Assembly (NCBI GenBank): GCA_903813345.2
Contig: CAIIXF020000001.1
Coordinates: forward strand, 15,252,001 to 15,316,000
DNA from: Owenia fusiformis
Taxonomy: Eukaryota
Direction of reading: 5' to 3'
DNA length: 64,000 nucleotides
Positions 400 through 34,220 of this stretch are shown in pieces. How positions within the stretch are numbered: the stretch's first letter is position 1; each line of letters begins with the position of its first letter. Both the position numbers and the translations under genes were made by a program. A model generated the notes under the pieces. It saw only the letters and a list, made by a program, of their open reading frames with translations. It was not told the DNA's origin and made no database searches.

Positions 400-1420
400 T
401 AGGTTATCATTGAGCAAATTGTTCCCGTTTCCATTTTTTTACTAATTGAGCCTGGTAATTTGTAGTCGTTGGTTGTTCTATGAACTCGCGTCTGGGGTGA
501 TTTATATCGTTCAAAAATCCGTTTTACTAAGATGGTACCAAATTGATATGAATCTTGAACATAACGCGCAATTTATGTTCATCCCGTCTATTTTGAAGAT
601 TACCCCCAATTTAATATTTTAGGTTTTTTCTTTGCTTGCTCCTTGCATAACACCAGAACAAATAACAGCTGCCCTATAATGTAGCTTGTCTAACTGGTCT
701 AGGTCTAGCTGGAGCAGCGTCATAATAATATCACAATAGTCCAGATGAGACAGGATAAAGGAAGAGTAAATTTTTCCAGGTGTTTTTTATGGTGCGAAAG
801 TTAGTCACCACTAAGTTAGTTACCACATTTGGATATAAATTAAGTCTTCTTGAAGGACCTGGCTGTTTGTTTAGTGATTGATTGGGTCAATCGGACAAAA
901 AAATGTGATATGTCATCCGCATAGATAAAACATTTTGATTTTAAGTCGTCTATGTCATTTAGGTATAATAAAAAGAAATCGGTCCCCATATTGAGCCTTG
1001 GGGGACTCCAGAGTTGATTTGACCGACTTTAATTGACCTAGACAATTCATCATTGATCCTAATTTTAATTGTTCTGCTCTTTGAGGTAAGATTGAAAAGG
1101 TCAAATAGTGATTTAGCTATACCGTAGGATTTTAGTTTCTGAAGAAGGAGTACATGAGGGACTTTGTCGAAGGCTGATTGAATGTCCAAAAATATTGCTC
1201 TAACATCAAGACCATTTTCAAAATTTTGAAGAATGTAGATTGTTATAGCAGTTAGTTGAGTGTTGTGTTCTTTAAGAAATCTTGATTGCATTTCATAAAT
1301 TAGGTTATTTGATGTCAAATGGGTTATCAGTTTACAATTTACTATTTTTTCGAAAAGTTTAGAACTTGTTTAAAGTAAAGTTACAGGCCGATAGTTTTTT
1401 ATCAGAGATTTGTCATGAAA
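400..1420 (-). mobile_element. Degenerate non-LTR retrotransposon (CR1/L2-type) reverse transcriptase fragment
   Basis: ORF 959-1318 has the RT motifs AIFLDIQSAFDKVPH and SGVPQGSIWGP. A YADD-type motif follows out of frame (tatgcggatgac on minus, ~912-923). The sequence is frameshifted. Confidence 0.85.
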
Positions 1421-4917: not shown

Positions 4918-5111
4918 TTATGTCACGTGGATCTGGAAAGGACTTCCTGGAATATCCTCGCCTCCCCAACGAACGTAAAGTTGGTGCTCTCCCTTCTCGC
5001 GGCCAGCCTTGTAGCTGCATGTATAGACCGTCTTGGTTGTTTTCTTGATGGTTACTTCTTCAGCCAGTTGTCCATTTGGACTGATCATATTGATAAAGAG
5101 AATGGCGGTAC
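4918..5111 (-). CDS. FLN: Filamin last coding exon (Ig24 dimerisation repeat, stop TAA)
   Basis: ttccag acceptor; encodes [14 protein letters not shown]...[16 protein letters not shown]. Confidence 0.92.
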
Positions 5112-8100
5112 CTGGAAGTAAATAACAACACATAATTTTGTTTCTTGTTTCTACTGATATAATCCTGGCCAAGGTCCCCAACAATATAAGTTTCTGCCAC
5201 CAGACTGATTCGTTACCAGTAAAGTAGTTTCATAATACAGGGTGGTCAAAAAATGGAAACCCTGCATTTTCCTCATATCTTCGTCATTTTGGGTAAATAT
5301 TCCCTGAAATTTGAGACACATGTACAACATTCAATTTCCTACCAGCTTACCATATTTCATGACCATCAGATTGATAGTCACAATGGTACAGCACTTTGAA
5401 CAAAAATCACGATGTCAGAGGAGTGTTTCTTGATATAGAATCTGCGTTTGATTCCGTTCCGCATTTCCTTTTGATAAAAAAAACTTAAATCAAATGGCTT
5501 TTCAGATACTATAACTCAACCTTTGCAGTCGTATCTTTTCAATTGTAGACTTCAAGTTAAAGCTAATGGAGAATGAAGCAATCTCAAATGAATACTTCAT
5601 AAATAGTTCAGTGCCGCAGGGATCCATAATTGGGCCGTTTTGCTTTCTGTTATATATAAATGACCTTCATGAAGTCATAAATCATAGTCAACTTTACCTT
5701 TATGCAGATGATAGTTCAATCTTTATGTCATTTAATAGGAAAGCTAATATCATTGAACAGAACCAGCATTTACAAGCTGACTTAAATAATTTATGGGAAT
5801 GGTCACAGAAATGGAAGCTTAAATTTAAACCTTCTAAAAGTCAAGATATGATTTTAAAGGCTCAAGGAGGTGCAATCTCTTATACCCTCCTCTCTACCTA
5901 GGAAATGAGGTCATTAATAGAACCAGAACTCATAAACACTTAGGAGTCATTCTAGATGAGCATTTGAATTTTGAAGCCCATTTACAGGATATCATAAAAG
6001 CATGTAATATAATGTTAAATCCATTGAAAGTTCTTAAGACCAAGATTCGAGCTAAACACCTAGAGAAGATGTATCTATCATTTATTCTCCCAAACTTAGA
6101 GTATGGAAGTATATTATTTGAAAAATCTACCAAGTATAATATTATGAAACTAGACCAAGTTCATTATAGAGCAGCATTATTAGTAAGTGGCTGCATTCAT
6201 GGAACATCTACTGTAAAGGTTTTGAAATGTCTAAATTGGAATACCCTGCCTGAGCGGAGAAAGGAGAAACGATTACGTTTAATATATGATGTTAGACAGA
6301 AATTGGTCCAAACTTATGTCAAAATTTTTTTTGATAGTTATCAAAATAAGCAACACAATATTAATTTAAGAAAATCAAGAGAATACACTATTCCAAAGTT
6401 AACTGCACGTTCACAAAAGTCACCAATAATAAATTCCATAAGAGAATGGGAAGCCATTCCAAATTATCTAAAAAGTGCACCATCAAGAGTCACTTTCAAA
6501 ACCAATTTACGTAAATATTCAGGGAGAATGAAGCATTTAACAACCACAAACCTGGATCTTACAAGAAAAGAAGAAATTTTACTGAATAGAACAAGATGTG
6601 ATTTCATTTTTACTGGTCATCTTTTTCAACATAATTTTCAAGGTATTGACAGTCCCAAATGCATCTGTGGTTTTAAACAACAAACTACAAAGCATCTAAT
6701 CTTCAAATGCCCTCTGTTGAATGTTATAAGAGAGAAACTTTGGGGGGAACTCAGGAACATGCCAGAAATGAACATTTTCTTTACAGGATGCTCTACAGAG
6801 CAAAAGCTAAATATCTTAATGTATGGCAGAGATGGAGTTAGCATAACATGCAATTCTTCAATATTGAAGCATTTTACATCCTTTTTGTGTGAATGCATTG
6901 ATATAATTATATAGTTTTAACACATTCCTACCATGCATACATACATGTTGGTAGTCATTTTGTTGCTATTTTGTAAATTTGAATAAACTTTGTATTAACA
7001 GGGCCAATAATGCTGATTTCAGCCTCGGCCCTGTCAATTGTAGCTAATTTTGTAAAGTAAAATAAAGAAACCATAAAAACTAAAAACTATGAAATATGGT
7101 AGGCCGGTAGGAAATTGAATGATGTACAAATGTGCTAAATATCAGGGAGTAATTTCCTTAAGGAATATTCCTTGCCAAACCATCTCTCTCCTCATATGGT
7201 AGCTATAACCATATATATGCTTGCCATGTTTAGCAAAACACGCAAAAATGTTTTGTTATGGTTAAATTTGATCACTTAGAAATGTGATGCTCAATTCCAG
7301 TAAGCTGCCATCTTTTAAAATTTCACACAGGAAGTGATGTCATCGACTCTCAACTTTGCATATAGCATTAGGTGAGGAGCTATTAAGAATTACAAAACCA
7401 GCTAAATATTCTCTTTCAACTTTGTATCTTATTTAATCCTTCTGAAAATCTCTTCTTTTATTCTAAGTTGACAAGCCCTGAAAATATTTTTGCACAGAAT
7501 GTAATGATCACTTGTCTAGAAGTGATTTTGTGCTACTTTCCTATACTCAAGGTTATAGAAAATGAGAGTTGATGACATCACTTCCTGCAAGAAATCTTAA
7601 AAGATGGCAGCTCACTGGAAATAAGCACTAGATTTTTAAATGATCAATATTGACCACATTAAAACAGTTTCCCATGTTTTGCTAAATATGGAAACTATAT
7701 ATATGATTATAGCTACCATATCAAGAGAGAAAGGGTCTGGCAAGGAATATTCCTTTAAATGATAAAGATATGAGGAAAATGGCGACAGGGTTTCCATTTT
7801 TTTTACCACCCTGTTTGCTCGAATAATTAAATAAAATAGTAGATATTTTCGTGGCAATATGAGCATGGACGCCAAAACAAATTGGGCCTTCTCGTATGTT
7901 TTCCGCAATCATTTCTTTGATCATTTCTTTCTCGGGTCACGCTGATCGCGAACTCAAAATTATTGCAACTTGTATAACTTATGTTTAAGAGAAAAGAAGT
8001 GAATTGGTACAATAATTAATTGAAATTGAGACTGTTTGTCTTGTAACCTTGTTATGTATTCACCAGTTATTTACTAATTTCCAGTTTGTCTAATGAACTT

Positions 8101-11100
8101 GATTGGCATTTTTGTATCAATATAATTGCAATATGTTATGCCGTGGTCACATTTGCTCCGATTTTTACTTCGGTAAATCGGAGCAAATGTGACCATGGCA
8201 TTAATCTATTTCTATTATATCATCTCTCCTACAGTACTATTGTCGTTTCCATGCAAATGTTATGCAATAGTACTATAATATATCAGTTATAGTGTGTTAA
8301 TTGGGCAATAGTACATACAAACCGTTGCGAATCATAATAAATGATTTCTGATGTTAAATTTCCCCTGGTATTTGTCTCGAATAGGGCTAGATTTCTTTAG
8401 GCCAGTATAGTTAAATGGGGACACAGTGGTGACTTTTACAATTCAAACGTCATTACAATTTAACTTTTCTTCCTCTTAAAACGATTTTACCAGGACGGGA
8501 ACAGGTTTAAATGCCATGCCTACCTGCGTCCTTTACGTCAATCGTGAATGGAGTGCTCCTTCCCATGAACGCTTTCTTCAATCCATTTCCTCTAGCAATA
8601 ACCTTTGCAGCATCTCCCGTGAACTTCTTCTTGGCCACTTGGCCTTCTTTCTTGTCTATACACTCAACTACTATGCCAGACTGCTCAATCACGCTGCTCT
8701 TTTTGCCTGCGCCTGGAGCAAAATAATGGAATACAATAAGAAACGAGGAGTGAAAGTGCTTTATGCTCTTACATGGTATAGGCTTTTTTAAACTGGCATG
8801 TTCTAGAGGATCATTCTCGGCCTGTAGAAGTATTTCCGAATTTATCATGACGTATAAAGAAAAAACTTAGCCGAATCTGAACGTTAGCATTATTGAACGT
8901 AATGACTCTTAAATCTTGATCAGTGACTACTAAAATATCGACAAAATATACTAATTTAGTAATTATGGTATTTACCTGTAACGTTAACCTTGGCAGGACT
9001 TCCAGCAATGGTGATGTTGCTGTACTTTATGTTGATCAGGTAATCGCCAGGAGACATAGGAGTGTAGTTAAATTCATAACCAGTGTCTATCTCCTTGCAC
9101 ATTACCGCCACCTTTGAAGGTCCATCAACGGTTACCGACATGAGTCCCTCTCCCGCACCAACAGTGTTTACAACGAACGCTGACTTTTTACCTGGAAAAT
9201 TGTTCAAGGAAATATATTTATAATTGGTTGATTTCTAATGTTATTAACACGACGTTTTGTTTTGTTTGTTTTGTTATCATACCTATATCCTAATCTAACC
9301 ATGGTATTTAACGTCAGCTTGCTCTTTGAATTAAGTGACGGTTTAATAAAACTAAATATACCGCATATGATACATTATCTTATATATTATGTTAGTCTCA
9401 GATAAATGCAATGAGTTTATAGACTCTTACCAACTGCTCCAGTGACGAGCCCGTCTCCAGCGGCGTGTACCATAGCAGGATCTGCTACTAGTCTGCCGAC
9501 CATCATGGGGAAGGGGCTGCCTGGGATATGAGCTTCGTTGAGGAAGACACTGACATAGTGGATACCATTCTCCCTGTGGCACATAATTCAACATTAGTAT
9601 TTAAGTTCCATACTTTCAGAAATAATTGAAAAGTGGGAAAATGGCTAATTCGATACAATTTGAGAAAAATATTTGTTTTTGGACTATCATTTTACTATAA
9701 CGTAAGACTATCCAAACATATTTTAAAAATATTATTTCATGCATTTTTGTTATGGTCGAAAACTGATCAATCATTCCATGCACATGTTGTTTATCTCTTG
9801 GGTATCAACTCATTTCGAACAAATATTTGCACATTGTTAATCTCCAATTCATACTTATGACATGCACGTTAATTGAAATACTTGTGAAGATAATGACATT
9901 CAAGACCTCTCTGAGTGAAACAAAAGTGTGATATTTCTATTATATAATTCGTTGATTAATTAGCGAAGCAGATTGACGACTTATTAACACCTCGGTCGAC
10001 ATAGGGCGTTTGCAGAACTCACTTTGGTATGAAACGAACGACATAGTTGTCGTCAGGGTCGATCTCTTGCACAAAGCAATCCTCGGTGGCTCCAGATGGT
10101 GTGTCCACAGAGGCATGGGTTGTTCCCGTGGCGCCGTTGTATTTCACGTTAAACGTTGCTGCTTTTCCAACCTACAAAAAATATTTGCATCTTATTTGAG
10201 ATTGCGAGTGTATCTCATTAACGTTCAAATGCCTGACAACTGTCTTAGAGAAAGTAAACTTAAAAAGATACAAATATATTGAATTTCATATATAATTATT
10301 TATCGCATGATCTGTAAAATGAAGCCCTCTGATTGGTCAGTTCTTGTGCTGTACCAATCTGTATTGCTACTGAGATTGTCCGCGTTGATCATCTCCGTCG
10401 CAATACAGAAAATATTGGTACGGAGGAGACAATCTCAGTAGCAATACAGAGGATAACACGATAAAAACGTTATTGAATGATTTGAAGTGCAATACAGGAT
10501 ATATTCTGTCTCGATATTCTGTATTGGCACTCGACTTCGTCTCGTTCCAATACGGAATTTCTCGAACAGAATATATCCTTATTGCACTTCAAATCATTCA
10601 ATAACTTATAATATCGTTGTCATGGTGACATGACGATATACTGTATGCTATCATAATTACTCTTATGTATTCATATTTAGCATACTGTCGGACTTTTTCT
10701 TTTTATTAAGATCGTTTACGTGTGGTATGTCAATAACACAGGGTGATCCAAAGAGTGGTCCATTCTAAATGAATAGTAGAAAATTAATTTTTCGAATTTT
10801 GATTAGATAAAAACTTTAGTTTGCCGTTTTTTCATCTTTTTCTTCCAGACTCTCTTGATGACACCATACTATATGTCCTTAGCGTTGGTCTTTAAGCTTT
10901 GTAAACAAATGCAATTGTCTCTTAGCCGTGATTAGAATGTGGAAAATGTGCCTCTGGACTTGAAATAGATTTGTGTGTAATGCACTTTCTTACCTCTTGA
11001 TCTTGCATGTGCCTTTCTTCCTGATCACACTTATATTTTGGGTTATCATTAACAATGAAACTAAACCTTTTCCCCAAATCATTTACATCGGGCACCCAGT

Positions 11101-14100
11101 GTCGATGCTATTTCACCTCAACAAAGTTAAATAGCAATATACCAATTCGAAATAAAGCGTTTTAGCAAAAGATTCGGCAAAAGCAAGCTTTCATATACGT
11201 TGCAGAGGATAAACCATTGACCGAACAATGCATTTGGGCGGAAAAATTAATTTTCTATGCAAGTTTAACAAATATTCCACCTTTTCGGACTACCCTGTTT
11301 AGTTATGCTACCATGTATGCAAATACTAGTTAACTGATTAAAAAGCACGCAACGAGGCCTGCAAATCATAAACCAGAACGATTACTAGAACGAGCATCTT
11401 TGGTTTTATGTGTACATCTATCTATTCTATGTATAGCAGGATTAGAGAAGATGGATTTCATTTAGGGGAATCTGCGGCATGAATGGCAAAGATGTCCAAT
11501 TGACACAATTCCTTTTGCATTATGACCACGAACTTATTGATATAAAATATGTATTTATTTTATTTTTTTTATTTATATAAAACAATGAGAGGAAAACTGT
11601 GTGATGCCATTGGCAGAATACTTGAACATATATGTGCTATCACATCACGAGTGAACAATTTTGGGAGGACAGTCTTTCTCGCATGGCCATCTTGCCTCAG
11701 GTTCCCCTAATGTTCTACAAAATCCGGTAACTGCTTACCCCATTTAGTTTATATCATATGACAAATCACACCTTGAACAGTAACGACTATACTATTACTA
11801 ACTCTTTCTATTCTATTTGTTATCACAATCTGCGTCACCAACAATTAGAAGGATTTTGGAAGATATCTTATGGTATGGGTAGTTTGGTTATGGGATCTAG
11901 TTGGTGGGATAATGACTCAAATTTGTAGCTAGGTTAAAATGGGTAATCATTGGTAATCTAGGGGTATTTTAAGTATGTTATTATTGGTACAACAACAGTT
12001 TATTCTAAAAGTTAAAATAGTATTTTTCTATCATACCATAGCATTATCGAGTAAGTCTCGTGAAATTATCACATGAAATCAGTTTAGCTGATTTGTCCAA
12101 AAATCAACTTCACCATAAATACAACTATACGATAATTTAGATCAAATGTACCAATTCGAAACAATGTGAGAACCTTTAATTATGCAAACAGCACACAACA
12201 AAGCGTCCATAATATATCATTGTGACAATGGGGTGAAACTAAGTGCATCACTTTGAGCAAGCCACGATGTCACGTATGATGACCATGACAACCTACCTGG
12301 AGCCCCCTGTCCTTGAAAGCATGTACTGACACTTTCTTTGAGTCAACGCTGGAGGGAGTGACATGAACGATGATTGGTGACTTTGGAATATGATTGTCAT
12401 CCCACTTAACATGGATTCCATATGGGCCTAAAGACACAGATATTCAACTACTATAACTAGAGTACACGCAGTTTGCGTTAGTAAACGCGTAACGACGATA
12501 CATGTAAAAGCAGAACATAACAATATTCATATTATTAGGCTTTGTCATTAATCTGAATCCATGGATGAAAGGTTTTAATCTCAACATCCCAGGTTAGACT
12601 GACTAAACATCCCTTTACTTCATCATGTTATGCACGATTGGGAAAAGGATATTTTGATGACGTAAATGATATGAATATTGTTGCCTGGTGTGTTATTTTA
12701 CGTACCTGTTTCCAAGAAACATGTGTGTGGGCAAACGTTGTTGAGTTTGAGAGCCATCTTTTGGCCATCTACTACTTACTGATCTGATTGTATTGATGCC
12801 AAATATGATATAAAACATTGCCATGGTAAATATGATTGGCATATCATGCTTGACATCAAAAGTACGATAATTGTTCGTAAAAGTGTTACAGCAAATGATC
12901 GCACATTTTAGAAATAAATCAAAGGTGTTTGTGAAATTCGGTCTACTGTCCACACATGCGAACCCGGAAACTAGCTACAATAAAGCTGCCAGCTGTGGCT
13001 GTGACTGCGATAATGCAGCAGAAAGAGGCACAAACACGCCATAAGCGCATATCTAGTGAACGGTAAGGCATGTCTAACCTCCAAACCACGGTCTCTCAAC
13101 GCGTGAACGGAGAGCTTTGTTGCCTCGCCACTGTGAGGAGTCACGTGACAGTTTAATGGTGACTTAGGTGTGTGTACATCGTTCCACTTTACGTGGACAC
13201 CATACATTCCTACAGGTCAGACACACATATAATCCCTAAACAATGGTAGCTAGTCTAATAGCAAATCAGTCATGACATTGCTCTTTTATTATCTTTTAGA
13301 CCCGTTGAGTATTACTAGACGCACAGAGATCAAGACCTGTGGCAGGGAGAAGAGTGTTATACAATGGTGCATCATTCACAATAAACTAGATCGGGTTAAC
13401 AAAAGTATCCACTGCTTTACAAAGAGACAAATAATAGATACACTGCATTGAAAATAATGAAGGAACATCTATTATGAGAGCATTGACGTTGACATAACAT
13501 CCTATTAACTAGCTACCTGATTTTCAGAGCTACAAGGAGAGACAGGATCACAAAGACTCGTGGGGACAGAGGATCAGAGGGAAATCATAGATGTAAACAA
13601 ACATGTTAAATAGAACATTAGTATATTCATATCTTGAAAATATGTGCATTAATGCTCAGTTAAATCCATTTATCAAGAAAATATTTTGCAATTTCGAATC
13701 TTTGAACTATATAGCGTATAGTCTACGTAAGTGATTGGTGGGCATTTTTTTCAAAAATTATGCTACGTGCCAGCCAAAATATCCTCCCATTATTCTTATT
13801 AGTGATAGGAAGATTCACACCAATTTTCAAGATATCAATATTAAGACGAATATTTACAAATAAAGAGGATTTAAATCACAATTACAATGTTTTGAATATT
13901 AATAATGTATATGGGGTTATTTTCTGAAATGAAGATTTTTAATCACTTAATCACAGACTCACAGTAGAGAAACTAAGATAAACTAAATATTGGGATAAAT
14001 TCCAGGAGCAGGTTTTCCAAGCAGCTTGTCTTGCATTGGGTGTGAGGGTACCTAGAGAATATACCTTTATTATTAGTTATGATGGGAACGTAAGCATATT

Positions 14101-17100
14101 ACGGTGATCTTGGTGTCTGGGGTCAGGGTGCTACACAATTCAATGTGCCGCTCTTACATCTTTGTTCGGATCTATCATATACCTCCATAGCTCCTTGGTT
14201 TCTTTCATCGTCGCTAGCTTTAGTGGTCGCTCAATGTTCTAGCATTCACCTACCTACGCGCACAACTCTAAAACATGTTCCCAGTGTTCACAGAGCACAA
14301 AATACCACTATATCAAAACCACCACCAACACAAATCACCACAAAGGTCAGTATGTTTACAAGGTGCACATTAAGTACCAATATTCATTGAGGTTGTCTTT
14401 CTTGGGACGGTTCATGAGTGGTTCTTTATGATTCGGTTCAGGCCATGCATGGTTCACCAGGTCACTGACAGTTTACGGTCAACAAACCTCTAATCCTCGA
14501 TCTTTAAAAGCGTGCACGGTGACTTTATTAGCATCCGCCGCATCAGGGGTAACGTGGATCATGATCGGGGATGCATGAGCGTGCTCATCGTTGTACTTTA
14601 TATGGATACCATAGTTCCCTGTTAATACCAGTAAGGAAGGAAATATTAATAGAATTTATCGAGTTGTCTAACAGATCATATGTCAGTTGGGGGATATGGG
14701 CGTAGCTAGCTATGAGGCAGGCGAAGCAACTGCCAAATACTGAAAAATATTTTTAGACGTTTTCTTATCTAAAACATTTTGTCCTGTTGAAGTTTAATAT
14801 CCTCTTTGCCATTTTAACTTTTACCTCGCCTTTGGAACCTTGCCTCAACTTTCTGGACGCTGGCTACGCCCATGAGAGAGTTGACGTGGAGGAGTAAGAA
14901 ATAATAGGTGATAGCTGCAATAAAGAAAAGTTAAGACATAGGGCCTGAAAGGTGAAAAGATTGATCAGAAGGTATAGCGTGCAAAGAAGAATGAGAGAAG
15001 GAATGCATTAGGGAGTTATACATATCGAATGTCCAAACCTCCAACCCCTTGTCTTTGACATTGTGTACTGTGAGGTTATTTGCCTCCCTAGAAGTCGGTA
15101 GGATTTGGACGTAGATTGGAGACTCTGGGACGTGTTCCTCGTTCATCTTGATATGTACGCCATATGTACCTATGAACAAATACTTGCATGTCTTTATTTA
15201 CTTTATTTTTTATTTAATTGATATTTTATTTTACTTTTATAGAGGTTGTTGCTAATGTTAGTGATTATCGTATTATGTATATATGTATCAAACACACATA
15301 GTACGTAGATATGCTCCAATAATCTGTCGTGAAAATGAAGTTGCTGAGTTATTCTTCAATTATAAACCCTCTTCGGGAAACCCAAGAAGATCTAAGATTG
15401 AATTGAAAGTTTGCAATTTTGTGCCATACTAATTGAATGTAAATATAGTTCTTTTAAAGTATAGTTTTACAATGTGTTCTCACTCTATAAAGTGGTAACC
15501 TTTGGAAATCAGTTATTGAAGAGTATCAGATAATGAGTTTTGATTAAAAGGCATATGGTGTAAGTGTCTTGTGACAATAACAATTATTAGCAATTATTAC
15601 TATTGAAATGCCAGATCGTATTGTGCAAATGAGTCGAAAGTCGTGCTTACCTGGTTTTGAAACTTCGTAGCTAATACCAATAAAACCATTTTTACGATCT
15701 TCAAACCCAATTTTGGCCTTCGATGGTCCTTCCACGGCAACAGACAACTGCCCGGGGCCAGCTTCTCGTGTGTAGATGTTGAACGAATCTGAAAAGGTAA
15801 AACACTTGTATCAGCAGATAGTCAAGTTACGTTGTTACCCTATATCCCAAAGTCACTCACTCCTTTAAGTATACCTTCCGGATAAAGTTTCTAATCACAC
15901 TTCTCCTTGATTTTTACTTTCAGTGTGTGAAATGCTTTAATACAATATTATTGTTTATATTATAGTTAAATATGATGTTTTGTTGAGAACATTTGACATG
16001 TACATTGGTCAAAACATCAACACTGACTCACTTTTGACGCCAACCTCCCCTCTTTCCAGGCCTGTTCCGCCGACTTCCACTTTGTGTGGGCCTCCAGCTG
16101 TCAGTTGACCCACTGTGTATTGGAAGGGACTACCGGAGCAATGAAGACCTCTATATTTCAATGAAACCGTGTGGACACCCTCCATTTTAGGAGAGAATTT
16201 AACATCATATTTGGAATCCTCAAGATCTCGGATTTCACACAGTTCTGTTTTTCCCTCTGGGTCTGTCAAAGATGCTTCAAGATCAAATGGATTTGTACCT
16301 AAAACACATAAATCACTACAGATATAGTTATACCCAATCTATTCAATCATATGACTTATAGTCCATATTACGTATTTTTACCTAACCTTTTAGACCTTAT
16401 GTATTACATTGAAGATTATATAAGATTGTATAAAATATCGTATGAAACAATTGTCTCTGATTAGAGATTTTTGAGCCAGTAATATAAATATCGCAATAGT
16501 TCCGATTTCAAGAGTTGAGCATACCGGGTATTTTGAGCATGAATTCACACTTGCTGCCAACACCCACATTGTCGGCCTGGGGTATATCTTTCACCAACGT
16601 TTCACGGGATCGCCCAGAAGGTTTTCCTCCAACGTTAACAACAAAAGGACTTCCTGTAACATAAACAAGTTTATTATGTTTTGTTGCAATTGAAAGTTAT
16701 AATTACTCTAAATGCATTCGTTCAACTACACGCTTCTTAAAAGAGAGCTTCGTCGGTAACTTGATGCTGAGCGCATGATGGTTTCATAGTTTCCAATAGG
16801 ATAGTTTCTAAATAGCAGAAAAATCAATGAAATCTCGTGCTGCCATCTTTTATTCAGCTTTTAACTCTGGCTAGAGCTCCATTCACTTACATGCTAAAAT
16901 CTTGGAAAAGTGGCTTAATTTCATGATTTATCAAAGTGTGTTTGTTGAATCTGTATAAAACTTGAATGATATACCACATGATGACCCTGTTTATGAACAT
17001 GTTGTGATTAAACATGCTAATGTTGATTGACATACAAATAATCCACGGTTTTAAAGAATTTTAGCATTGCATCTATGGACATTTGGCCCAACTTTTTTTA

Positions 17101-20100
17101 AATTGTCATAGAAAATTATTCAAATTACATAACTTCGTAAATCAAAGCTATTTTAGGAGAAAACATTCCACTGAATTCAAATATACCATTTAAAAGAAGG
17201 TAATGTAAGTCATTAGAGGTCTAATATGCAAGTCTCTTAAAATCTCACGAAAAACGAGATTTAGCGAGATTTCAAAAGCTATATGGAAACTATACTATAG
17301 GATAGTTTCTGCATATAGTTATTTTCAGATTAGGGGGATAAGTACGGCAACGAAGATTATTATAAAATACGAATCATATTTTATCAATGTATCATCTAAA
17401 GTTCAAACAATTATTCAATTTAAAACTACGTACTACATTTCAAATTAAACGTCATCAGTTTTAGTTGTCATTTATAAGTTTATATTTGGAGTATCTCTTC
17501 ACTTGGGATTCAATTAAATAAGAAATTGACAAATTGCAGTACAATAACGCAGATGCGAGTAGGTAGTTACCAGTTTCGCCACCAGGTGGCTCGTTTGGGT
17601 CAGATAACATGGCGGGTATAGTATAAAGTTCCCTTTAACTTGAATTACATCTGTTTTAGTGGTTCAATTTTTATATAACCCTTATGTATCTAATAGTTAT
17701 GCAAATTAAAATATGTCCAGTAAAAGAAAATGTTATCTGTTCAACACAAGAAAAGATATTTCACTTTTTGTGATTTTGTAACATGGGGTCTAGATGAGGA
17801 ATCAACCTGAGCTAGAAGTCACATTTTCCCAAAAGATTAAATTTTCAAAGTTGATAAACAATTTTCGAAACCATTTTTCTAGATGCACTTTTACATGTAG
17901 ATTTCAAATATGACATCACTTTGACTGAATTTTGAATATTAAATGACGTAAATCAAGATTATTTCTATTCGCATCTAGTCTATTGTTTTTAGATTCATCA
18001 GTAGTACCTGGTATATGTTCATCGGCGAATATAACATTGACAAGATATATGCCAGGTTCGTGGGGTTTGTAGTTCACAGTGATAACACCCTCGGCGTCTA
18101 CTGTATGTTTAATGTCGGATCTGTGGCCGCCCTCTATCGACACACCGCAGTTACCGTAACCTAGAAAAATGAACATCAACTCCTCGTTCATTATTTCAGA
18201 TTAGCATGACACATACTTACGATCATTTTAAAGATATATTTGATGAGTAGTATCACCCATTGATACGATGGACATATGGTTGTTTGGATTTTAACTTCGC
18301 ATTTATTAACCAATACTTTATTGAAACATGTGATACAAAAATAAAATCCAAACTAATGCAAACAACTATTTTGATCTAAATATTTAGAATGCAACCATTG
18401 TAAATCTGATACTTCTAAATGGCCCAGATATCGCAACAGTATGAAATGAAAATTTGATTAATTCTTCCAATCGTTGACGCCATCCTCGCTCCTCACCTGC
18501 GCCTGCTGTGAAAATAGTGAACTCGTTGTCTGCGTTAGACACTGCATCTGAGATACCCTTGCCGGACACTTTCACCTTGCTGGCACTTGCGAGCTCCTTG
18601 TCACCTATGGACACTGATAGTGGACTACCTTTGATGTTCTTCTCATCTCTCTTTATCTCAATAGTATGTGTGCCCTTCTCCTTTGGTTGAAATGACGAAA
18701 TTCCTGCGGTAAACAAAAATAATTCATGCTAAAATATTTCCTGGGTAAAAAGTTAAGGTAAAAAGTAGACCATAATGAAAATGTGTCTCAGTGATAATTG
18801 GTCCAGTTCTATAACAATCGATACACTAAATGTGTATAAAAGGTTAACGTTGCAAAAAGAGGGAGGGCCCCGGACTACCACATGCTCACTACCATTATAT
18901 CTGTCACGTGGGTGTCACATGATATACAAACCTAAATGCCCGTTTGGCAGCTTCTTTAAGATGCATGTTTCAACTGATCCACTTGGGTTTTTATGTGTTC
19001 CAACAAGACCAACTAGATCTGCCTCACTTATTTTAGTGTCATATTCGCTGCCTGTGCTTACAGATATTTGGGAACGTTTTCGACCTTCACCAGATACCTT
19101 GGCAGAAAATGGCGATCCAGATATATTCCTGCCTTTATTTTTGACTGAAATAGAGTATTCGCCTGGAGACATAGGAGTATAGGCAACGCCGACTGTGCCG
19201 TCTCTGTTTTTGGTCAGCTTTGCGTCACATTTAGATGGTCCGTCAATTGAGACTGTGATATCGCCTGAAAGAACATGTTTAGTTTCTTTTTACATCATCC
19301 CTGCAATTCTCGAATCCGTTATCTAAATGGAACTGAAACGGGGCTTGTATAGACTAAAGACTTCAGTTTCAGTTTCATAGTGCATACTGTCACTGGGGCA
19401 TTTCCTATTTTACATGACTGACTTTAAACATGTGTTTCCCCACAACAACATCGATAAATAATAAGGGATACACGGCTTTGACTACTAGATATTTAAAACT
19501 GTTGAACAAGGTGAGAAATCACAAGATTTTAGCTCTGCTTAGGAGTCTCAGATTGCAGCTACCCTGTGGTTCTTCAAGCTTGTACACATGTTATACCACG
19601 CATATGGTAAGCCACACCATAATACATTCAAGAAATATAGAAATCAGGTGCAAGAAATCCTTTCTTTGAAATTCCTACCTGGGTTTTGGGCTGCAACGTG
19701 AAATTCTGTTACATCACCGCTCATGCCGGAAGAAAGTCCATGGCCGTAGGCGGTTACGTATCCGCTACCAACTGCGTCCACGTGACAAAGAAATGGGCTA
19801 CCTGGAGAATTGAACGTAACATGATTTATATATTATATAATATAATATATTTTATCCCACCCTAAGTGCTTTATATGATTGTATAATAGCATTGTATAAC
19901 TGCAATATAAAACCAACACTCATCGTATACAACTCTTGAGAACGAGTACAGTACAACTCCTGGATAGCGTAACTCCTGGGTAGCGTATACAACTCTTCGA
20001 CTTGATATACAACTGCTGAATTTAGATTAATCTTTTATTGATCAAATATTAGGGTGGGATAATAAGATCATATAATGGTTGATTCTGTATATCGTTATAC

Positions 20101-20801
20101 TCTCGTGAGTATATATTATATTCACTCTTTCCCTTCAGTCACTCGTGAATATATCATATATACTCACTTGAGTATAAACACGATATACGGAATATACGGA
20201 ATCAACCATTATATAATCTCATAATGTAAGCGCTAGTTTATCAGGGTACTATATCAAAAAGCTAGAACCAGCCTGATATACAGTTACAAAATTGCAAGCA
20301 ACATTTACCAAGCCTAATATTATCTAAAAAGTATGATATACAATGTACGATGTTATTTAAGATCCATAAATTGCAGAAATACGTTAAATTTTCACATCGT
20401 GGTATCAAATACGTTGATAGAAAAATCATGAATCAAAATATGGGCTTCCAGAAGACTCTTAAAGCCAGTGATCAAACATGATTAGTTTATTTACATTTTA
20501 CACGTATGGACAGTTGTCCCAAACAGGAACTTTATCAAATCTCATAGGTATGCTTTTTTGCGATTGTTATAAGCTTACGTGTACATGTATTCATAGGGTG
20601 CTATCCGTTTCACAAAGATTCCTAACAAGGTTATTGCTATGATGTACGAGTATGCTTATTGCTTACCGTCGACGGGCTGGTCATTGTAGCTCATCACCAT
20701 TTCGTGGATGCCCTTGGCACTGGTCTGATATGTGACTCCCACTGATCCATCTTTGTTGGCAGTCACCACGGGGTGTGGATTTCCTGAAGGCATTTTGGAT
20801 T
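4918..20801 (-). CDS. FLN: Filamin (filamin-A/cheerio-like), Ig repeats equivalent to FLNA Ig16-24; multi-exon
   Basis: Exons on minus, 5' to 3': 20667-20801, 19679-19801, 18932-19264, 18497-18703, 18008-18160, 16525-16653, 16032-16298, 15651-15788, one of four 131-nt exons, 10023-10171, 9431-9573, 8976-9191, 8524-8712, 4918-5111. All are AG/GT-bounded and phase-compatible, with repeated GPSK/EGxHxV/IPGSPF filamin motifs, collinear with the FLNA C-terminal rod and dimerisation repeat. Confidence 0.95.
5238..7813. mobile_element. Tc1/mariner-type non-autonomous fold-back element in the last filamin intron, interrupted by a LINE
   Basis: TIRs TA|cagggtggtcaaaaaatggaaaccctg ... cagggtttccattttttttaccaccctg. 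Internal inverted arms at 5298-5360/7089-7155 and ~7160-7355/7560-7755. Confidence 0.8.
5361..7088 (+). mobile_element. 5'-truncated CR1/L2-type LINE (RT plus C-terminal CCHC knuckle, A-rich tail)
   Basis: [17 protein letters not shown] (~5415-5465), VPQGSIIGP and LYADD (ORF 5566-5901), C-terminal CICG...HLIFKCP (ORF 5964-6914), 3' end aaataaagaaaccataaaaactaaaaacta. Frameshifted. Confidence 0.92.
8139..8200. mobile_element. 62-bp hairpin micro-MITE with TTA target-site duplication (PIF/Harbinger-like)
   Basis: TTA|tgccgtggtcacatttgctccgattt ... aaatcggagcaaatgtgaccatggca|TTA. Confidence 0.65.
8524..8712 (-). CDS. FLN: Filamin exon (hinge 2 and start of Ig24)
   Basis: AG/GT bounded, 189 nt, phase 1-1; [10 protein letters not shown]...[31 protein letters not shown]. 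Confidence 0.9.
8976..9191 (-). CDS. FLN: Filamin exon (Ig23)
   Basis: 216 nt, phase 1-1; [15 protein letters not shown]...DGPSK...[15 protein letters not shown]...GSPAKVNVT. Confidence 0.92.
9431..9573 (-). CDS. FLN: Filamin exon (Ig22/Ig23)
   Basis: 143 nt, phase 2-1; [47 protein letters not shown]. Confidence 0.92.
10023..10171 (-). CDS. FLN: Filamin exon (Ig22), the acceptor exon downstream of the exon cluster
   Basis: 149 nt, phase 0-2; [16 protein letters not shown]...[26 protein letters not shown]. Confidence 0.92.
10290..10610. mobile_element. Palindromic non-autonomous element with two hairpins
   Basis: Stems at 10359-10380/10428-10449 and 10469-10605 (gttattgaatgatttgaagtgcaata ... 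tattgcacttcaaatcattcaataac) around the loop ctcgacttcgtctcg. Confidence 0.7.
10739..11297. mobile_element. Tc1/mariner-type MITE
   Basis: Imperfect TIRs cagggtgatcc...agaaaattaattttt and aaaaattaattttct...ggactaccctg. Confidence 0.6.
12297..12427 (-). CDS. FLN: Filamin alternative exon D (131 nt)
   Basis: ctttag acceptor, gtaggt donor; [44 protein letters not shown]. Confidence 0.9.
13079..13209 (-). CDS. FLN: Filamin alternative exon C (131 nt)
   Basis: ctgtag acceptor, gttaga donor; [44 protein letters not shown]. Confidence 0.9.
14488..14618 (-). CDS. FLN: Filamin alternative exon B (131 nt)
   Basis: taacag acceptor, gtttgt donor; [44 protein letters not shown]. Confidence 0.9.
14695..14874. 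mobile_element. Short MITE between alternative exons A and B
   Basis: Termini tatgggcgtagc ... gctacgcccatg; no clear TSD. Confidence 0.55.
15039..15169 (-). CDS. FLN: Filamin alternative exon A (131 nt)
   Basis: tcatag acceptor, gtttgg donor; [44 protein letters not shown]. Confidence 0.9.
15651..15788 (-). CDS. FLN: Filamin exon (Ig21 core), the donor exon upstream of the exon cluster
   Basis: 138 nt, phase 1-1; [45 protein letters not shown]. Confidence 0.92.
16032..16298 (-). CDS. FLN: Filamin exon (Ig20/Ig21)
   Basis: 267 nt; [15 protein letters not shown]...[34 protein letters not shown]. Confidence 0.92.
16525..16653 (-). CDS. FLN: Filamin exon (Ig19/Ig20)
   Basis: 129 nt; [42 protein letters not shown]. 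Confidence 0.9.
18008..18160 (-). CDS. FLN: Filamin exon (Ig19)
   Basis: 153 nt; [11 protein letters not shown]...[21 protein letters not shown]. Confidence 0.9.
18497..18703 (-). CDS. FLN: Filamin exon (Ig18/Ig19)
   Basis: 207 nt; [17 protein letters not shown]...[10 protein letters not shown]...EFTIFTAGA. Confidence 0.9.
18932..19264 (-). CDS. FLN: Filamin exon (Ig17/Ig18)
   Basis: 333 nt; [11 protein letters not shown]...[11 protein letters not shown]...GSPFSAKV...[11 protein letters not shown]. Confidence 0.92.
19679..19801 (-). CDS. FLN: Filamin exon (Ig16/Ig17)
   Basis: 123 nt; [40 protein letters not shown]. Confidence 0.9.
19848..20215. mobile_element. Double-hairpin palindromic element in a filamin intron
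   Basis: Inverted arms ttatcccaccctaa/ttagggtgggataa (~19852-20060) and tataatggttgattc...tatactc / gagtata...gaatcaaccattata (~20071-20213). Confidence 0.6.
20667..20801 (-). CDS. FLN: Most 5' recognisable filamin exon (Ig16); contains the ATG of MPSG at 20791-20793
   Basis: tttcag acceptor, gtaagc donor; [44 protein letters not shown]. Confidence 0.88.
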
Positions 20802-20974
20802 CTGAAACACACAATAGCATAGTGTAGAAGGAAGCATTAAACAATTATGACGAGAAGGTTTTGGAAAAAGAACAACCGTTAAATTATGAGCGTTTTATTA
20901 CTTTTTTGCCATTTGTCTGACCTATTCCGTCTTGGATGCAGACGATGATAAAGAATAATTTGACTTATGCCCCC

Positions 20975-21960
20975 AACACTCAAAAGTGGCAGCATGATAG
21001 GTTTCACTCAAAAGTGACAGCAGAATAGATTTCACCCAAAGTGTTCTGCAGAATGGGTTTCACTCAAAAATAGCAGCAGAAGGAATTTCACTCAAAAGAA
21101 GCAGCAGAATAGATTTCACCCAAAGTGGTCTGCAGAATGGGTTTCACTCAAAAATAGCAGCAGAAGGAATTTCGCTCAAAAGAAGCAGCAGAATAGATTT
21201 CACCCAAAGTGGTCTGCAGAATGGGTTTCACTCAAAAATAGCAGCAGAAGGAATTTCACTCAAAAGAAGCAGCAGAATAGATTTCACCCAAAGTGGTCTG
21301 CAGAATGGGTTTCACTCAAAAATAGCAGCAGAAGGAATTTCACTCAAAAGAAGCAGCAGAATAGATTTCACCCAAAGTGGTCTGCAGAATGGGTTTCACT
21401 CAAAAATAGCAGCAGAAGGAATTTCACTCAAAAGAAGCAGCAGAATAGATTTCGCCCAAAGTGGTCTGCAGAATGGGTTTCGCTCAAAAGTAGCAGCAGA
21501 AGGAATTTCACTCAAAAGAAGCAGCAGAATAGATTTCACCCAAAGTGGTCTGCAGAATGGGTTTCACTCAAAAATAGCAGCAGAAGGAATTTCACTCAAA
21601 AGAAGCAGCAGAATAGATTTCGCCCAAAGTGGTCTGCAGAATGGGGATCGCTCAAAAGTAGCAGCAGAATGGGTTTCACTCAAAAGTGTCAGTAGAATGG
21701 GTTTCACTCAAAAGTGGCCGCAGAATGGGTTTCACTCAAAAGTGTCAGCAGAATGGGTTTCACTCAAAAGTGGCCGCAGAATGGGTTTAACTCAAGTACT
21801 GTCAGCAGAATGTGTTTTTTTTCAAAAAAAACTCACAAGAAGCAGCAGAATAGATTTCACCCAAAATGGTTCCTCAAATGTGCGAACAGAATGGGTTTCA
21901 CTCAAAAGTGTCAGCAGAATGGGTCTCACGTGCACTCAAAGGTGTCAGCAGAATGGGTGT
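20975..21960. repeat. 28-bp minisatellite organised as an 84-bp (3 x 28) higher-order repeat
   Basis: Monomer about gcagaatgggtttcactcaaaagtg(n); the trimer recurs at 21101, 21185, 21269 and onward. Confidence 0.9.
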
Positions 21961-24227
21961 ATTCGATAATGTATTATGTAAATGGGTAATGAAAACATGC
22001 ATCTTCAAGCAAACATCTACACTGGTACGTTAACTGCTGATGTTTCAAACTATTACAGAGAAGCCATCATTTCTTAACATCAGTCTTATTTATAAAATTA
22101 AACCTTATATTTGTATCAAGGGGCAGGACAAGGAGCATGCTAATAATAAAAAACTAATACAAAAATAATGTATTTATGGTGTCGCCCTATTTCATTGATA
22201 TGATAAGTATGAAATACTCTTTTATATCTGCATAGCTAAAAGAGTATGATACTTGTGATCATTGTAAAATTATGGAAATATTTCAAAAGCCACTCTCAAC
22301 TCTACTTCATCCTTCACATCAACAAGTCAAAGGTGCAAAATATAATGTTATAAAAGACTGTCACAGAAGGATTAAATATTGAAAGGGGACCTGATTTCCA
22401 TTCAGGTGCTAATGTCCTCTACTCTGTACTGTATTTAAAATATATAGACTTAGAAAATATGTGAATAATCGAAAACAGAGTTATGATATAACATGACCAA
22501 AGGATATAAACAGTGACTTGAGATGTTAAAGTCCCAATAAAAATACACCTAAATGCTATTTATTTTAGGTTTTAATTAAGGGGCAAAAGGGCAAATTTGG
22601 CCCGATTGACAATAATGAGCTTACAAACGGGAGCTTATCGTCCAGATTGACGTCAACAAGCTTCTTTAAGGTTATGTTTGGTTCGTTTCTATCATTCAAC
22701 CGTGAAAAGGTTTTATATGGTGACTATTTTACAACGATGTCCCGACTTCACTTGTTATAACAAAGTGGTTACTTTTGTCCTGGAAATATCTGCATTTTTA
22801 ACATACAGATACACTTAGGATTTGAAACTGATACAATATTTTAAAGATCAATGCACCCCCTTCCCCCCATCCCCTCATTAATGATTAATATGAGGCTGTG
22901 CACCAATGAAATCGAGGATATATAGCCTTGCCAAGTTTAAAGATAAGCAAATGATGCTCCTCGCCTAATTTTCATAACTAATTACTTTCCTTATAATAAT
23001 TGAATTATTTTGGGCTATGAACCGCTGTTAAGCTAGATAATACTCTCTCGTGAAACCTGGGTAATCAGGGAGAGCACAACCAGTGGCACACATGGGGATA
23101 TGTTGTACCTTTAGACCGGGCCTTTAGATTGATGATATAAGTTTAAAATCCCAAGAAAGTCGCCATGCAAAGTATGAAAACAACTTTTTGATTATTTTTT
23201 ATCTAATTTAATGTTATTTCTATAAAATGTAGAACAGTGAGTACACTTTTGCATGTAGTCTTGCTCAAAGACTGTTTCCACCCCCCACCCCCCCCCCCCC
23301 CGTCATCTTCATTCTCTTTACCTGGCAATATAGGGTCTTTTAAGCAAGACTATTTTGCATGTTAAATGCAGGTTTTTAACATTACTAGTCAACGAAGAGG
23401 GCCATCGTCGGCATTCAGGAGCCGAATATTAACCATAAAGATCAGAAAAAGCTATATGGTGAAAACACTTCAAAGCTGGGTCATATAATGCTCCATAACC
23501 CCCGTCCGAAAATAATAGATGAGTTCACATTTAGGTATACATTACTATACAATTTAAATCCATCGTACTAATATAGCCAAACAACATATTTTATTTAACT
23601 CAATTTCATTTCCTTCAGAGACTAATAAAATTTATAACTTCTGAAGTAAATGGACTTGAGTTAGTTAATACATTACCAGAGAGATGCAGAGAAATCTATT
23701 TTATGTCTATATTCGACGTTCATTTATGTCTCTGATTAAGCGTATCCCTAATTGATTGATTGAATGATCGAGATGATCGAGACTGTTACAATCAGCGTGT
23801 TCTGATCAACAACGTTAACTGTCACTCAAGTACCGATGTCATCTTGGATCGAATGATCGTGTTTATATACGTTTATGTATTTACTTGCACGATATGAGGT
23901 TTAATCAGTCTGTACTAAAACATCTGATTATGGACGACAACTTAAAGATGCACTTTATCCTTATAATTATGTTATTTCATGGAAACAGTATTTATGCACA
24001 TACCTTAAGTTTAACAAATACAAAGTGAAGGAATGTTTACATTTCATATGATATATCAGTCCCTACACGAAATCTATTCTTATTTGATAATGGTGTTTAG
24101 TAATTTCGAAACATCGTTCTAAATCGATTACACAGCCATCCTTGATTTTAGAAATGTTGTATTATACTGAATGTTTTGAAACGTGTTTAGCTTTTTTAAA
24201 TAATTACAAATCTTCTTCCTTACTGAC

Positions 24228-24318
24228 CTTTATTATGGATTCGCCAATTTTCTGGCACCCGCCTGTTGAGTCGAGGACTAGGGCATTCTTTTTTATTTCC
24301 AACTGCTGCTAACGACAT
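24228..24318 (-). CDS. Candidate upstream (first coding) exon of the short filamin
   Basis: ATG at 24316-24318, open for 30 codons (MSLAAVGNKKECPSPRLNRRVPENWRIHNK), ending at a phase-1 donor G|gtcagt compatible with the 20801 acceptor. No homology support. Confidence 0.3.
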
Positions 24319-30417: not shown

Positions 30418-30684
30418 TATCCAATGAAAACTTCCAGTTGCCAAACTTATGGAGGGGAGTGTACCCAATGAAAACTTCCAGTTGCCAAACTTATGGAGGG
30501 GAGTGTATCCAATGAAAACTTCCAGTTGCCAAACTCATGGAGGGGAGTGTATCCAATGAAAACTTCCAGTTGCCAAACTTATGGAGGGGAGTGTATCCAA
30601 TGAAAACTTCCAGTTGCCAAACTTATGGAGGGGAGTGTATCCAATGAAAACTTCCAGTTGCCAAACTTATGGAGGGGAGTGTAT
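30418..30684. repeat. 44-bp minisatellite, 6 near-identical copies
   Basis: tatccaatgaaaacttccagttgccaaacttatggaggggagtg, with ccaatg at 30421, 30465, 30509, 30553, 30597 and 30641. Confidence 0.95.
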
Positions 30685-33039: not shown

Positions 33040-34220
33040 ACTCTACATATGCTCTACATATACTGACATCCACCAAGGTATTGCTGCTCTACATATACTG
33101 ACATTCACCAAGGCAACTTAAATTACTGCTCTACATATACTGACATCCAACAAGGTATTACTGCTCTACACATACTGACATCCACCAAGGGAAATTAAAT
33201 TACTGCTCTACATCTACTGACATCCACCAAGGGCAAATTGAATTACTTCTCTACATATACTGACATCAACCAGGGCAAATTGAATTACTGCTCTACATAT
33301 ACTGACATCCACCAAGACAAATTGAATTACTGCTCTACATATACTGACATCCACCAAGGCAAATTGAATTACTGCTCTACATCATATACTGACATCCACC
33401 AAGATATAACTGCTCTACATATACTGACATCCACCAAGGTATTATTGCTCTAGATATACTACTGACATCCACCAAGGCAAATTACATTGCTCTACATATA
33501 TTGACATCCACCGCCGAGGCAAATAAAATTACTGCTCTACATATAAAGACATCTAACAAGGCACATTACATTACTGCTCTGCATATACTGACATCCACCA
33601 AGGCAAATTAAATTACTGCTCTACATATACTGAAATCCAACAAGGCAGATAAAATTACTGCTCTACATATACTGACATCCAACAAGGTAAATTGAATTAC
33701 TGCTCTACATATACTGACATCCACCAAGGCAAATTGAATTACTGCTCTACATATACTGACATCCAACAAGGTAAATTAAATTACTGCTCTACATATACTG
33801 ACATCCACCAAGGCAAATTAAATTACTGCTCTACATATACTGACATCCAACAAGTTAAACTAAATCACTGCTCTACATATACTGATATCCAACGAGGCAA
33901 ATTAAATTACTGCTCTACATATACTGACATCCACCAATACAAATTGAATTACTACTCTACATATACTGACACCCACCAAGGTATAACTGCTCTACATATA
34001 CTGATATCCACCAAGGCAAATTGAATTACTGCTCTACGTATACTGACATCAACCAAGACAAATTGAATTACTGCTCTATATATACGTACTGACATCCACC
34101 CAGAAAACGAATATACTTTTCTACATACTGACATCCTCGGAGGCAACTTTTGAATTGATTGCTGCTGCACATGTACATATGATACTGACAACAACTGATG
34201 CAACTTGAATTACCGACCTA
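33040..34220. repeat. 42-bp minisatellite (about 25-28 diverged copies)
   Basis: Unit aaattgaattactgctctacatatactgacatccaccaaggc; it produces the spurious 14-aa repeat ORFs NYCSTYTDIHQGKL. Confidence 0.95.

Follow-up and report, generated by a model that had tools for sequence, protein, structure and literature searches.

Four tandem, probably mutually exclusive exons in a short filamin-like gene of Owenia fusiformis

The locus and its host gene

A 64,000-nt stretch of the genome of the annelid Owenia fusiformis (contig CAIIXF020000001.1, positions 15,252,001 to 15,316,000), here called the window, carries a short filamin-like gene on its minus strand (Table 1). The gene holds four homologous exons, here named A to D in the order of transcription, and it is quite probable that these are tandemly duplicated, mutually exclusive exons of a protein that has nine filamin repeats and no actin-binding domain. 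An original prediction, made from the DNA sequence alone, had described the cluster as a four-way cassette at the junction of filamin Ig21 and Ig22, from which each mRNA would take one exon.

The gene is represented in public annotation by P0001 (CAH1773270.1, 865 amino acids [aa], Owenia fusiformis, "unnamed protein product"), which by tblastn matches the exons of the window at about 100%, exon by exon. The annotated proteins are 832 to 865 aa long, and Pfam finds in them nine filamin Ig repeats and no CH domain; in P0001, the Filamin family (PF00630) accounts for nine stretches with an E value of 2.8e-137. Tandem repeats of the filamin/ABP280 Ig type are thus indicated by Pfam, by PDB matches, and by a fold match. 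The annotated proteins lack the N-terminal tandem CH domains and the total of about 24 repeats that mark a canonical full-length filamin, and no further filamin exons were found in the 40 kb upstream that lie within the window. Moreover, full-length nemertean and oyster filamins align by their C-terminal parts only (residues 1622-2457 in Lineus) and have no match between 21 and 64 kb of the window. The name filamin, as given in the original prediction, therefore fits the repeats, but the annotated product is not a full filamin.

The short form is not peculiar to Owenia. The leech Helobdella robusta has an 833-aa short-form model, and five of seven spliced metagenome or metatranscriptome contigs that were checked hold complete frames of 825 to 836 aa that start with "MP..." and have an in-frame stop before the start, in agreement with the 832-aa Owenia isoform. 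A conserved short family of 825 to 846 aa without an actin-binding domain is made up of L001, L002, L004, L006, L007, P0182, P0191, and P0327. Its Ig21-like repeat reads Y-G-[IV]-H-[IV]-K, as the Owenia exons do, whereas canonical filamins read Y-x-V-S-[IV]-K-F, and H. robusta is the one named member. We conclude that a short filamin-like form without an actin-binding domain is real and conserved in other species.

Table 1. Coordinates of the gene, the cassette exons, and their surroundings in the window
Feature	Position	Strand	Remarks
Short filamin-like gene, annotated span	4921..24318	-	First coding exon 24229-24318, last 4921-5112; tblastn of P0001
Constitutive upstream exon	15651..15788	-	Ends ...AAA CCA G/gtaagc, phase 1; strands B-E of Ig21-like repeat, including C-D face
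Cassette exon A	15039..15169	-	131 nt; in annotated isoform P0123 (CAH1773269.1); read cover in runs X13, X14, X16
Cassette exon B	14488..14618	-	Length, phase, AG/GT, and frame intact; low, ambiguous strand-specific cover in X15, X16
Cassette exon C	13079..13209	-	131 nt; X13 contig joint to downstream exon; missing from three public protein models
Cassette exon D	12297..12427	-	131 nt; in annotated isoforms P0001, P0122; X13 contig joint to downstream exon
Constitutive downstream exon	10022..10171	-	Starts GTT GGA (VGKAATFNV...), phase 0; strand B onward of Ig22-like repeat
Five cluster introns	10172..15650	-	481, 420, 1278, 651, 2125 nt; all GT-AG

Four homologous exons

All four exons are preceded by AG and followed by GT, run from phase 1 to phase 0, and are open in a common frame (frame 2). 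The other two frames are interrupted by stops in exons A, B, and C; in exon D, frame 0 is also open. Thus, length, borders, phases, and open frames were as predicted in every detail. The 43-residue peptides share 13 invariant positions (Y2, G3, H5, K7, H12, S16, P17, P24, V34, H35, D39, G41, and L42), agree pairwise at 18 to 26 residues, and are 42 to 51% identical to the peptide of exon A.

When the annotated protein was compared with the window by tblastn, all four exons were matched (E values of 4e-10 to 8e-24). A profile of the segment, built with the four exons themselves included, gave exactly four full-length matches in six frames of the 64 kb (E values of 5e-26 to 6e-24), and the next-best match (E value of 0.008) fell on the corresponding stretch of a different filamin repeat. 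This six-frame scan of the window revealed neither a fifth copy of the cassette exon nor a decayed one. In word-indexed protein searches, the four-exon profile had no match among proteins of 23 to 76 aa and, among longer proteins, matched solely the product of the window's own gene.

The similarity stops at the exon borders. In gapped alignments, the exons are identical at 84 to 92 of 131 nt, against 77.5 +/- 2.9 for shuffled sequences, whereas the 150-nt flanks score as their shuffles do, both upstream (87.7 versus 87.9 +/- 3.1) and downstream (90.5 versus 87.8 +/- 3.1). Because flank identity is no higher than that of the shuffles, the flanking introns were rightly called dissimilar.

One exon per reading frame

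Since 131 is not a multiple of 3, the number of cassette exons in a transcript sets its reading frame. When the exons were joined to their neighbors in all 16 combinations, the four single inclusions were open, and the 11 other combinations (with zero, two, three, or four exons) ran into stops 52 to 141 codons into the test construct, well before the final exon junctions. Thus, as had been proposed, only an mRNA with a single cassette exon is productive, all other combinations being out of frame or stopped. Each translated mRNA would accordingly keep exactly one of the four exons, and mis-spliced products may be removed by nonsense-mediated decay.

Use of the exons in RNA

Three public isoforms exist, of which P0001 and P0122 contain exon D and P0123 contains exon A; exons B and C are unannotated. 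Outside the cassette, P0123 and the exon D isoforms agree at 822 of 822 positions. According to the genome paper, the Owenia annotation was produced by merging RNA-seq transcripts via Mikado, Augustus, and PASA (PMC9977687).

RNA evidence came from four runs, designated X13 to X16, of which three are stranded raw RNA runs read at 6 to 12% and X13 was used in the form of contigs. No run on record as RNA was listed among the indexed runs that share words with the window, and the three stranded runs were chosen by their species label. The type of run X13 is unrecorded, and we took it as cDNA because its contigs skip introns at GT-AG borders. One X13 contig joins exon C directly to the downstream exon (10168/13076, cut +3) at a depth of 30.8, and another joins exon D directly to the same exon (10170/12297) at a depth of 11.1. 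On the sides that face the cassette, the contigs of the two constitutive exons break off precisely at 15650 and 10170, as happens where an assembly graph branches. Per-exon depths, obtained by arithmetic from bin depths and thus as crude as word depth itself, were about 34 for exon C, 11 for exon D, 9 for exon A, and 0 for exon B. Their sum, about 54, is near the 45 to 46 of the flanking constitutive contigs, as one exon per molecule predicts.

In the three stranded runs, all cover had the orientation that a minus-strand gene would give. Exons A and C were covered in X14 and X16, and exon D was covered in X14, X15, and X16. Outside the cassette, joint 15788/16032 was seen in three RNA runs and one contig run, and joint 9572/10022 was seen in all four runs. 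Thus, exons A, C, and D are used in RNA, A and D as annotated isoforms and C and D as spliced contigs. Among the joints listed, and at low short-read depth, the isoforms and contigs that were seen carry one cassette exon each. The junctions that the original prediction had named as a check were therefore found on the downstream side for exons C and D, but none of those on the upstream side, from 15651, was among the joints listed.

Several points weigh against a cassette in which four exons alternate. The raw RNA runs are shallow at the cassette, at about 1-5x, and no joint from 15651 to any cassette exon was among those listed. Joints are known in part, so that transcripts with several cassette exons may exist. 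Exon B has a depth of zero in X13, its cover in X15 and X16 is accompanied by cover of the adjoining intron bins and may come from pre-mRNA, and it has no joint among those listed, although no exon A joint was listed either. Moreover, the stop positions are the one ground on which decay of mis-spliced products is proposed, and we infer both the regulation of exon choice by tissue or stage and the function of the variants.

Exon B bears most directly on the number of variants. The cluster could be a three-way switch between A, C, and D, with exon B as a relic that is silent, or almost so, and has yet to decay. Besides having no listed joint or contig and zero depth in X13, exon B is missing from the public isoforms, and in its H-[IV]-P-x-S-P motif a histidine replaces the near-invariant proline: exon B reads E-H-A-H-A-S-P, against H-[VIT]-P-x-S-P in A, C, and D and in nearly every relative. 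A relic, however, would not be expected to keep exactly 131 nt, AG/GT borders, and an open frame while its synonymous sites have become saturated (proportion of synonymous differences [pS] of 0.74 to 1.07 against its paralogues), nor to show a proportion of nonsynonymous differences (pN) of 0.26 to 0.30, as low as in the used exons. Exon B also has the top score against the segment profile (87.6 bits, with exon B itself in the profile), and its expression was assessed in the four runs alone, each read at 6 to 12% or as contigs. We find the three-way switch doubtful, if still a serious contender, and suppose that exon B may also be used. Of the four variants that had been predicted, then, those with A, C, and D are backed by RNA or annotation, but the one with exon B has no joint among those listed.

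How one exon could be chosen

How a single exon is selected has several known answers in other genes. Steric hindrance and U2/U12 incompatibility do not apply to the Owenia cluster, because the introns between the cassette exons are 420, 1278, and 651 nt long and all are GT-AG. The cassette donor sites are gtttgg, gtttgt, gttaga, and gtaggt, and the absence of a U12-type donor consensus was judged by eye.

Choice at splicing could instead be made by competing docking and selector pairing of the Dscam1 or 14-3-3xi type, with the frame rule as a mere backstop. The near equality of cassette and flanking depths in X13 is what a clean choice would give, the introns of 420 to 2125 nt leave room for docking and selector elements, and a candidate docking element at 11677-11706 can pair with each of I0-I3 (-23.6 to -29.6 kcal/mol). 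In a crude scan (30-nt windows, RNAduplex), however, docking and selector pairing was no better than in six dinucleotide shuffles. The best energies for pairing with all three partners were within the range of the shuffles, at -23.6 kcal/mol for docking in the last intron (shuffles, -20.9 to -24.2) and -19.0 kcal/mol in the first intron (shuffles, -16.5 to -20.0). Moreover, the candidate duplexes are long and gapped and overlap an apparently repeat-derived inverted repeat. We consider such a mechanism unlikely here; it finds no support in the pairing scan, which neither supports nor excludes it. The comparison with Dscam and myosin in the original prediction thus stands for a tandem cluster of the mutually exclusive type but is unsupported for docking and selector pairing.

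The inverted repeat was noticed by eye in the intron between exons A and B, at 14700-14880 (catgggcgtagccagc ... gctagctacgcccat). It resembles a small foldback or MITE-like element and accounts for some of the strong pairings of the RNA scan.

Place of the cassette in the filamin fold

Residues 266-549 of the Owenia protein align to human FLNA Ig19-21 (2j3s) with an E value of 5.6e-80, and residues 551-646 align to Ig22 structures. The nine repeats are homologous to human filamin Ig16-24, which makes the cassette-bearing homologue of Ig21 the sixth of nine, and the first cassette residue aligns to ...GDYEVSVKF... of human FLNA. Together with the Ig21 complexes 2brq and 4p3w, human FLNA Ig19-21 is among the closest known systems. 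Foldseek, which confirms the filamin fold, returned 2j3s as the best match, and the crab structure 7vzo matched with a TM score of 0.95, a root mean square deviation (rmsd) of 1.4 A, and 52% identity. The predicted placement at the end of Ig21 and the start of Ig22 is therefore correct by homology, in both the alignment and the model.

An AlphaFold model with a mean pLDDT of 80 assigns to the Ig21-like repeat strands 465-467, 480-485, 492-500, 505-510, 515-521, 526-534, and 544-549, and begins the next repeat at strand 559-561. In this model the cassette would correspond to residues 527-569, that is, strand F, the F-G loop, strand G, the linker, and strand A of the next repeat. The strands given by the upstream exon are 480-485, 492-500, 505-510, and 515-521; strands C and D thus lie on a constitutive exon, and the C-D ligand face is fixed, as had been proposed. 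Modeling of each variant, another check put forward with the prediction, was run for the A and D isoforms. Both have identical strands (526-534, 544-549, and 559-561) and similar confidence, with pLDDT over the cassette of 79 to 86 for the exon A isoform and 81 to 88 for the exon D isoform.

On this model, the chosen exon would supply strands F and G of the sixth repeat, the linker, and strand A of the seventh, while a C-D face of the ligand-binding type would come unchanged from the upstream exon. The Ig21-type domain of vertebrate filamin A is described as a force-regulated ligand-binding domain. The Owenia variants might differ in domain stability, interdomain geometry, or partner binding, and exon choice may be regulated by tissue or stage. 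That the cassette tunes mechanosensing or partner binding, in the words of the original prediction, would be one such outcome.

Age and relatives of the cassette

In all six pairs of exons, pS is saturated at 0.59 to 1.07 and pN is 0.24 to 0.35. Saturated synonymous sites together with low pN indicate old copies, each of which has retained its frame, length, and splice sites. We conclude that the duplication is old and that each copy is under purifying selection, in line with the original prediction.

All four exons might be spliced and yet be functionally equivalent, with the cluster persisting, for example, through partitioned expression only. The like models of the A and D isoforms would fit this, and relatives manage with one cassette exon. 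The four peptides, however, differ at 17 to 25 of 43 positions and each is still constrained, and by eye it is mainly the F-G loop, the G strand, and the linker that differ, with core-looking positions kept. Functional equivalence thus strikes us as rather improbable. That the repeat is an artefact of collapsed haplotypes or assembly duplication, or a set of chance open frames, would find encouragement in the identical 1328-nt tandem array elsewhere in the window, a possible assembly product, but this reading is refuted for practical purposes by the RNA joints, the annotated isoforms, and the pattern of pS and pN, the exon copies being identical at only 74 to 82 of 131 nt with unrelated flanks, three of the four being present in transcripts or annotation, and 12 sequencing runs of several studies holding 12 to 78% of the window's sampled words.

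Relatives were sought in a scan of metagenome contigs, in which 134 of 194 pattern matches were confirmed and the best 80 loci were kept, and among mollusc and nemertean isoforms, with up to 15 members per cluster. An upstream, a cassette, and a downstream exon were found together at 13 genomic loci of the Y-G-x-H-x-K clade (several of them near-duplicates, about three lineages) and at 9 loci of canonical filamins, with one cassette exon each. Over the 80 loci, the profile gave one near-full-length match in 68, partial matches only in 3, and none in 8, which by our own reading hold the upstream exon only. A spliced canonical filamin, L008, had two profile matches, the second being another repeat. 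The isoforms compared were 13 oyster proteins from six species, 9 from Mercenaria, 4 from Mya, 4 from Littorina, 14 from Sinanodonta, 3 from Bradybaena, and 2 from Lineus, and the listed isoforms within each species carry one and the same segment. No second complete cassette exon was found among the best 80 metagenome loci or the listed mollusc and nemertean isoforms.

The single exon of the relatives, Helobdella robusta (XP_009025779.1) included, runs ag/NN+129/gt and so is 131 nt long, with the same boundaries and phase. It belongs to the same sequence family and differs in being present once rather than four times; being single, it must be constitutive there. As to one of the checks that came with the original prediction, a conserved exon number in related genomes, the loci and isoforms sampled have a single exon at this place. 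As far as sampled, the four-exon cassette is not a general feature of filamins. At locus L067, a partial extra copy of the cassette exon (1357-1422, profile positions 4-22) lies 134 nt upstream of the complete exon at 1491-1619, and it may be an abortive or decayed duplication in another species.

Because all sampled relatives have a single exon, the duplication looks specific to the Owenia lineage. In a tree of the 43-residue segment, the Y-G-x-H-x-K clade had an SH-aLRT value of 93, with 37 of 55 inner branches left open. All 27 sequences other than P0207 and those of Owenia group in a clade (SH-aLRT of 89) that excludes the Owenia exons, and a tree in which the four Owenia exons were held together was 2.81 lnL better than the free tree and was not rejected (p-AU of 0.584). 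A duplication within the Owenia lineage, after its split from the sampled relatives, is the simplest reading, weakly supported by so short a segment. A grouping of exon D with P0207 (SH-aLRT of 86) was distrusted, as P0207 is long-branched and 52% identical to the Owenia protein elsewhere.

Known systems and significance

Tandem duplication that yields mutually exclusive exons is a textbook source of protein diversity, and Dscam1 is a mutually exclusive exon cluster that arose by tandem exon duplication. Known variants of vertebrate filamins lie elsewhere than at the cassette position, and our literature search turned up no paper on alternative exons at that position in vertebrate filamins. 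Likewise, we know of no cassette in Drosophila FLN90 or in the crab protein of PDB entry 7vzo.

Such exons are described in the muscle myosin heavy chain across Metazoa (PMC3912159) and in coq-2 of annelids, molluscs, and helminths (PMC7434440). The Owenia cluster resembles myosin heavy chain, coq-2, and Dscam1 in having adjacent homologous exons of equal length and phase, of which one would enter each mRNA and swap a structural element. It is unlike them in its host, a filamin-like protein, and in being confined, as sampled, to one annelid lineage. Moreover, in Owenia the reading frame, through the 131-nt length, would enforce exclusivity, and the docking and selector signal does not rise above shuffles. 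Like the Owenia models of 832 to 865 aa, FLN90 of Drosophila cheerio consists of C-terminal Ig repeats only, without an actin-binding domain, and it is reported to be an isoform of the full-length gene (PMC5173320); the Owenia short form may come from a separate gene or from an internal promoter of a longer one. The crab protein, "filamin C domain 5-6" (7vzo), is alike to the Owenia short form in layout and fold.

Our literature search found no description of mutually exclusive exons in a filamin or of the Owenia cluster, and neither filamin nor alternative splicing comes up in the main text of the genome paper (PMC9977687). The suggestion that the four-way cassette was undescribed thus holds insofar as no paper was found, but the exon A and exon D variants were already in public annotation. 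The novelty lies in the host gene and in the structural element that is exchanged; the type of mechanism is already well known.

The annotation, which is without exons B and C, can now be corrected. Moreover, strands F and G and the linker are encoded at this locus in four natural versions, which are open to biophysical comparison. The cluster says little about filamins in general, because it was found in one lineage and in a short form without an actin-binding domain.

A fuller account would have all four exons used in a tissue- or stage-specific manner, so that the Ig domain is a four-state module, with exclusivity set by the reading frame alone and no Dscam-like pairing. We offer this account tentatively, as a possibility that may well fall short in one of its parts. 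If it is true, an early-branching annelid exchanges the F-G hairpin, the linker between repeats 6 and 7, and the first strand of repeat 7 while holding the C-D groove constant. Nature would then have provided an allelic series on how the back face of an Ig21-type domain and its linker set the opening force or the choice of partner.

Other features of the window

A segment at 10256-10733, in the intron that follows exon D, is read to depths of hundreds on either strand in every RNA run, with many variants and with loose ends at 10298-10300, 10469, 10508, and 10614. This pattern suggests a dispersed repeat family with transcribed copies elsewhere. Within the filamin-like gene, the first intron contains an 84-nt tandem repeat of 9.6 copies at 20977-21782, with a long repetitive open frame, and the last intron contains a non-LTR-type RVT_1 fragment at 5515-5901 (+), followed by a 358-aa open frame at 5838-6914 that has no Pfam match. 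A second non-LTR-type RVT_1 fragment lies at 959-1369 (-). Tandem repeats also occur at 30418-30684 (44 nt, 6.1 copies) and at 33080-34085 (42 nt, 24.5 copies). Finally, from about 53001 to 63800, a 1328-nt unit is repeated in tandem, with 100% identity between copies for eight periods or more, and this perfect identity suggests either a very young satellite or an assembly product.

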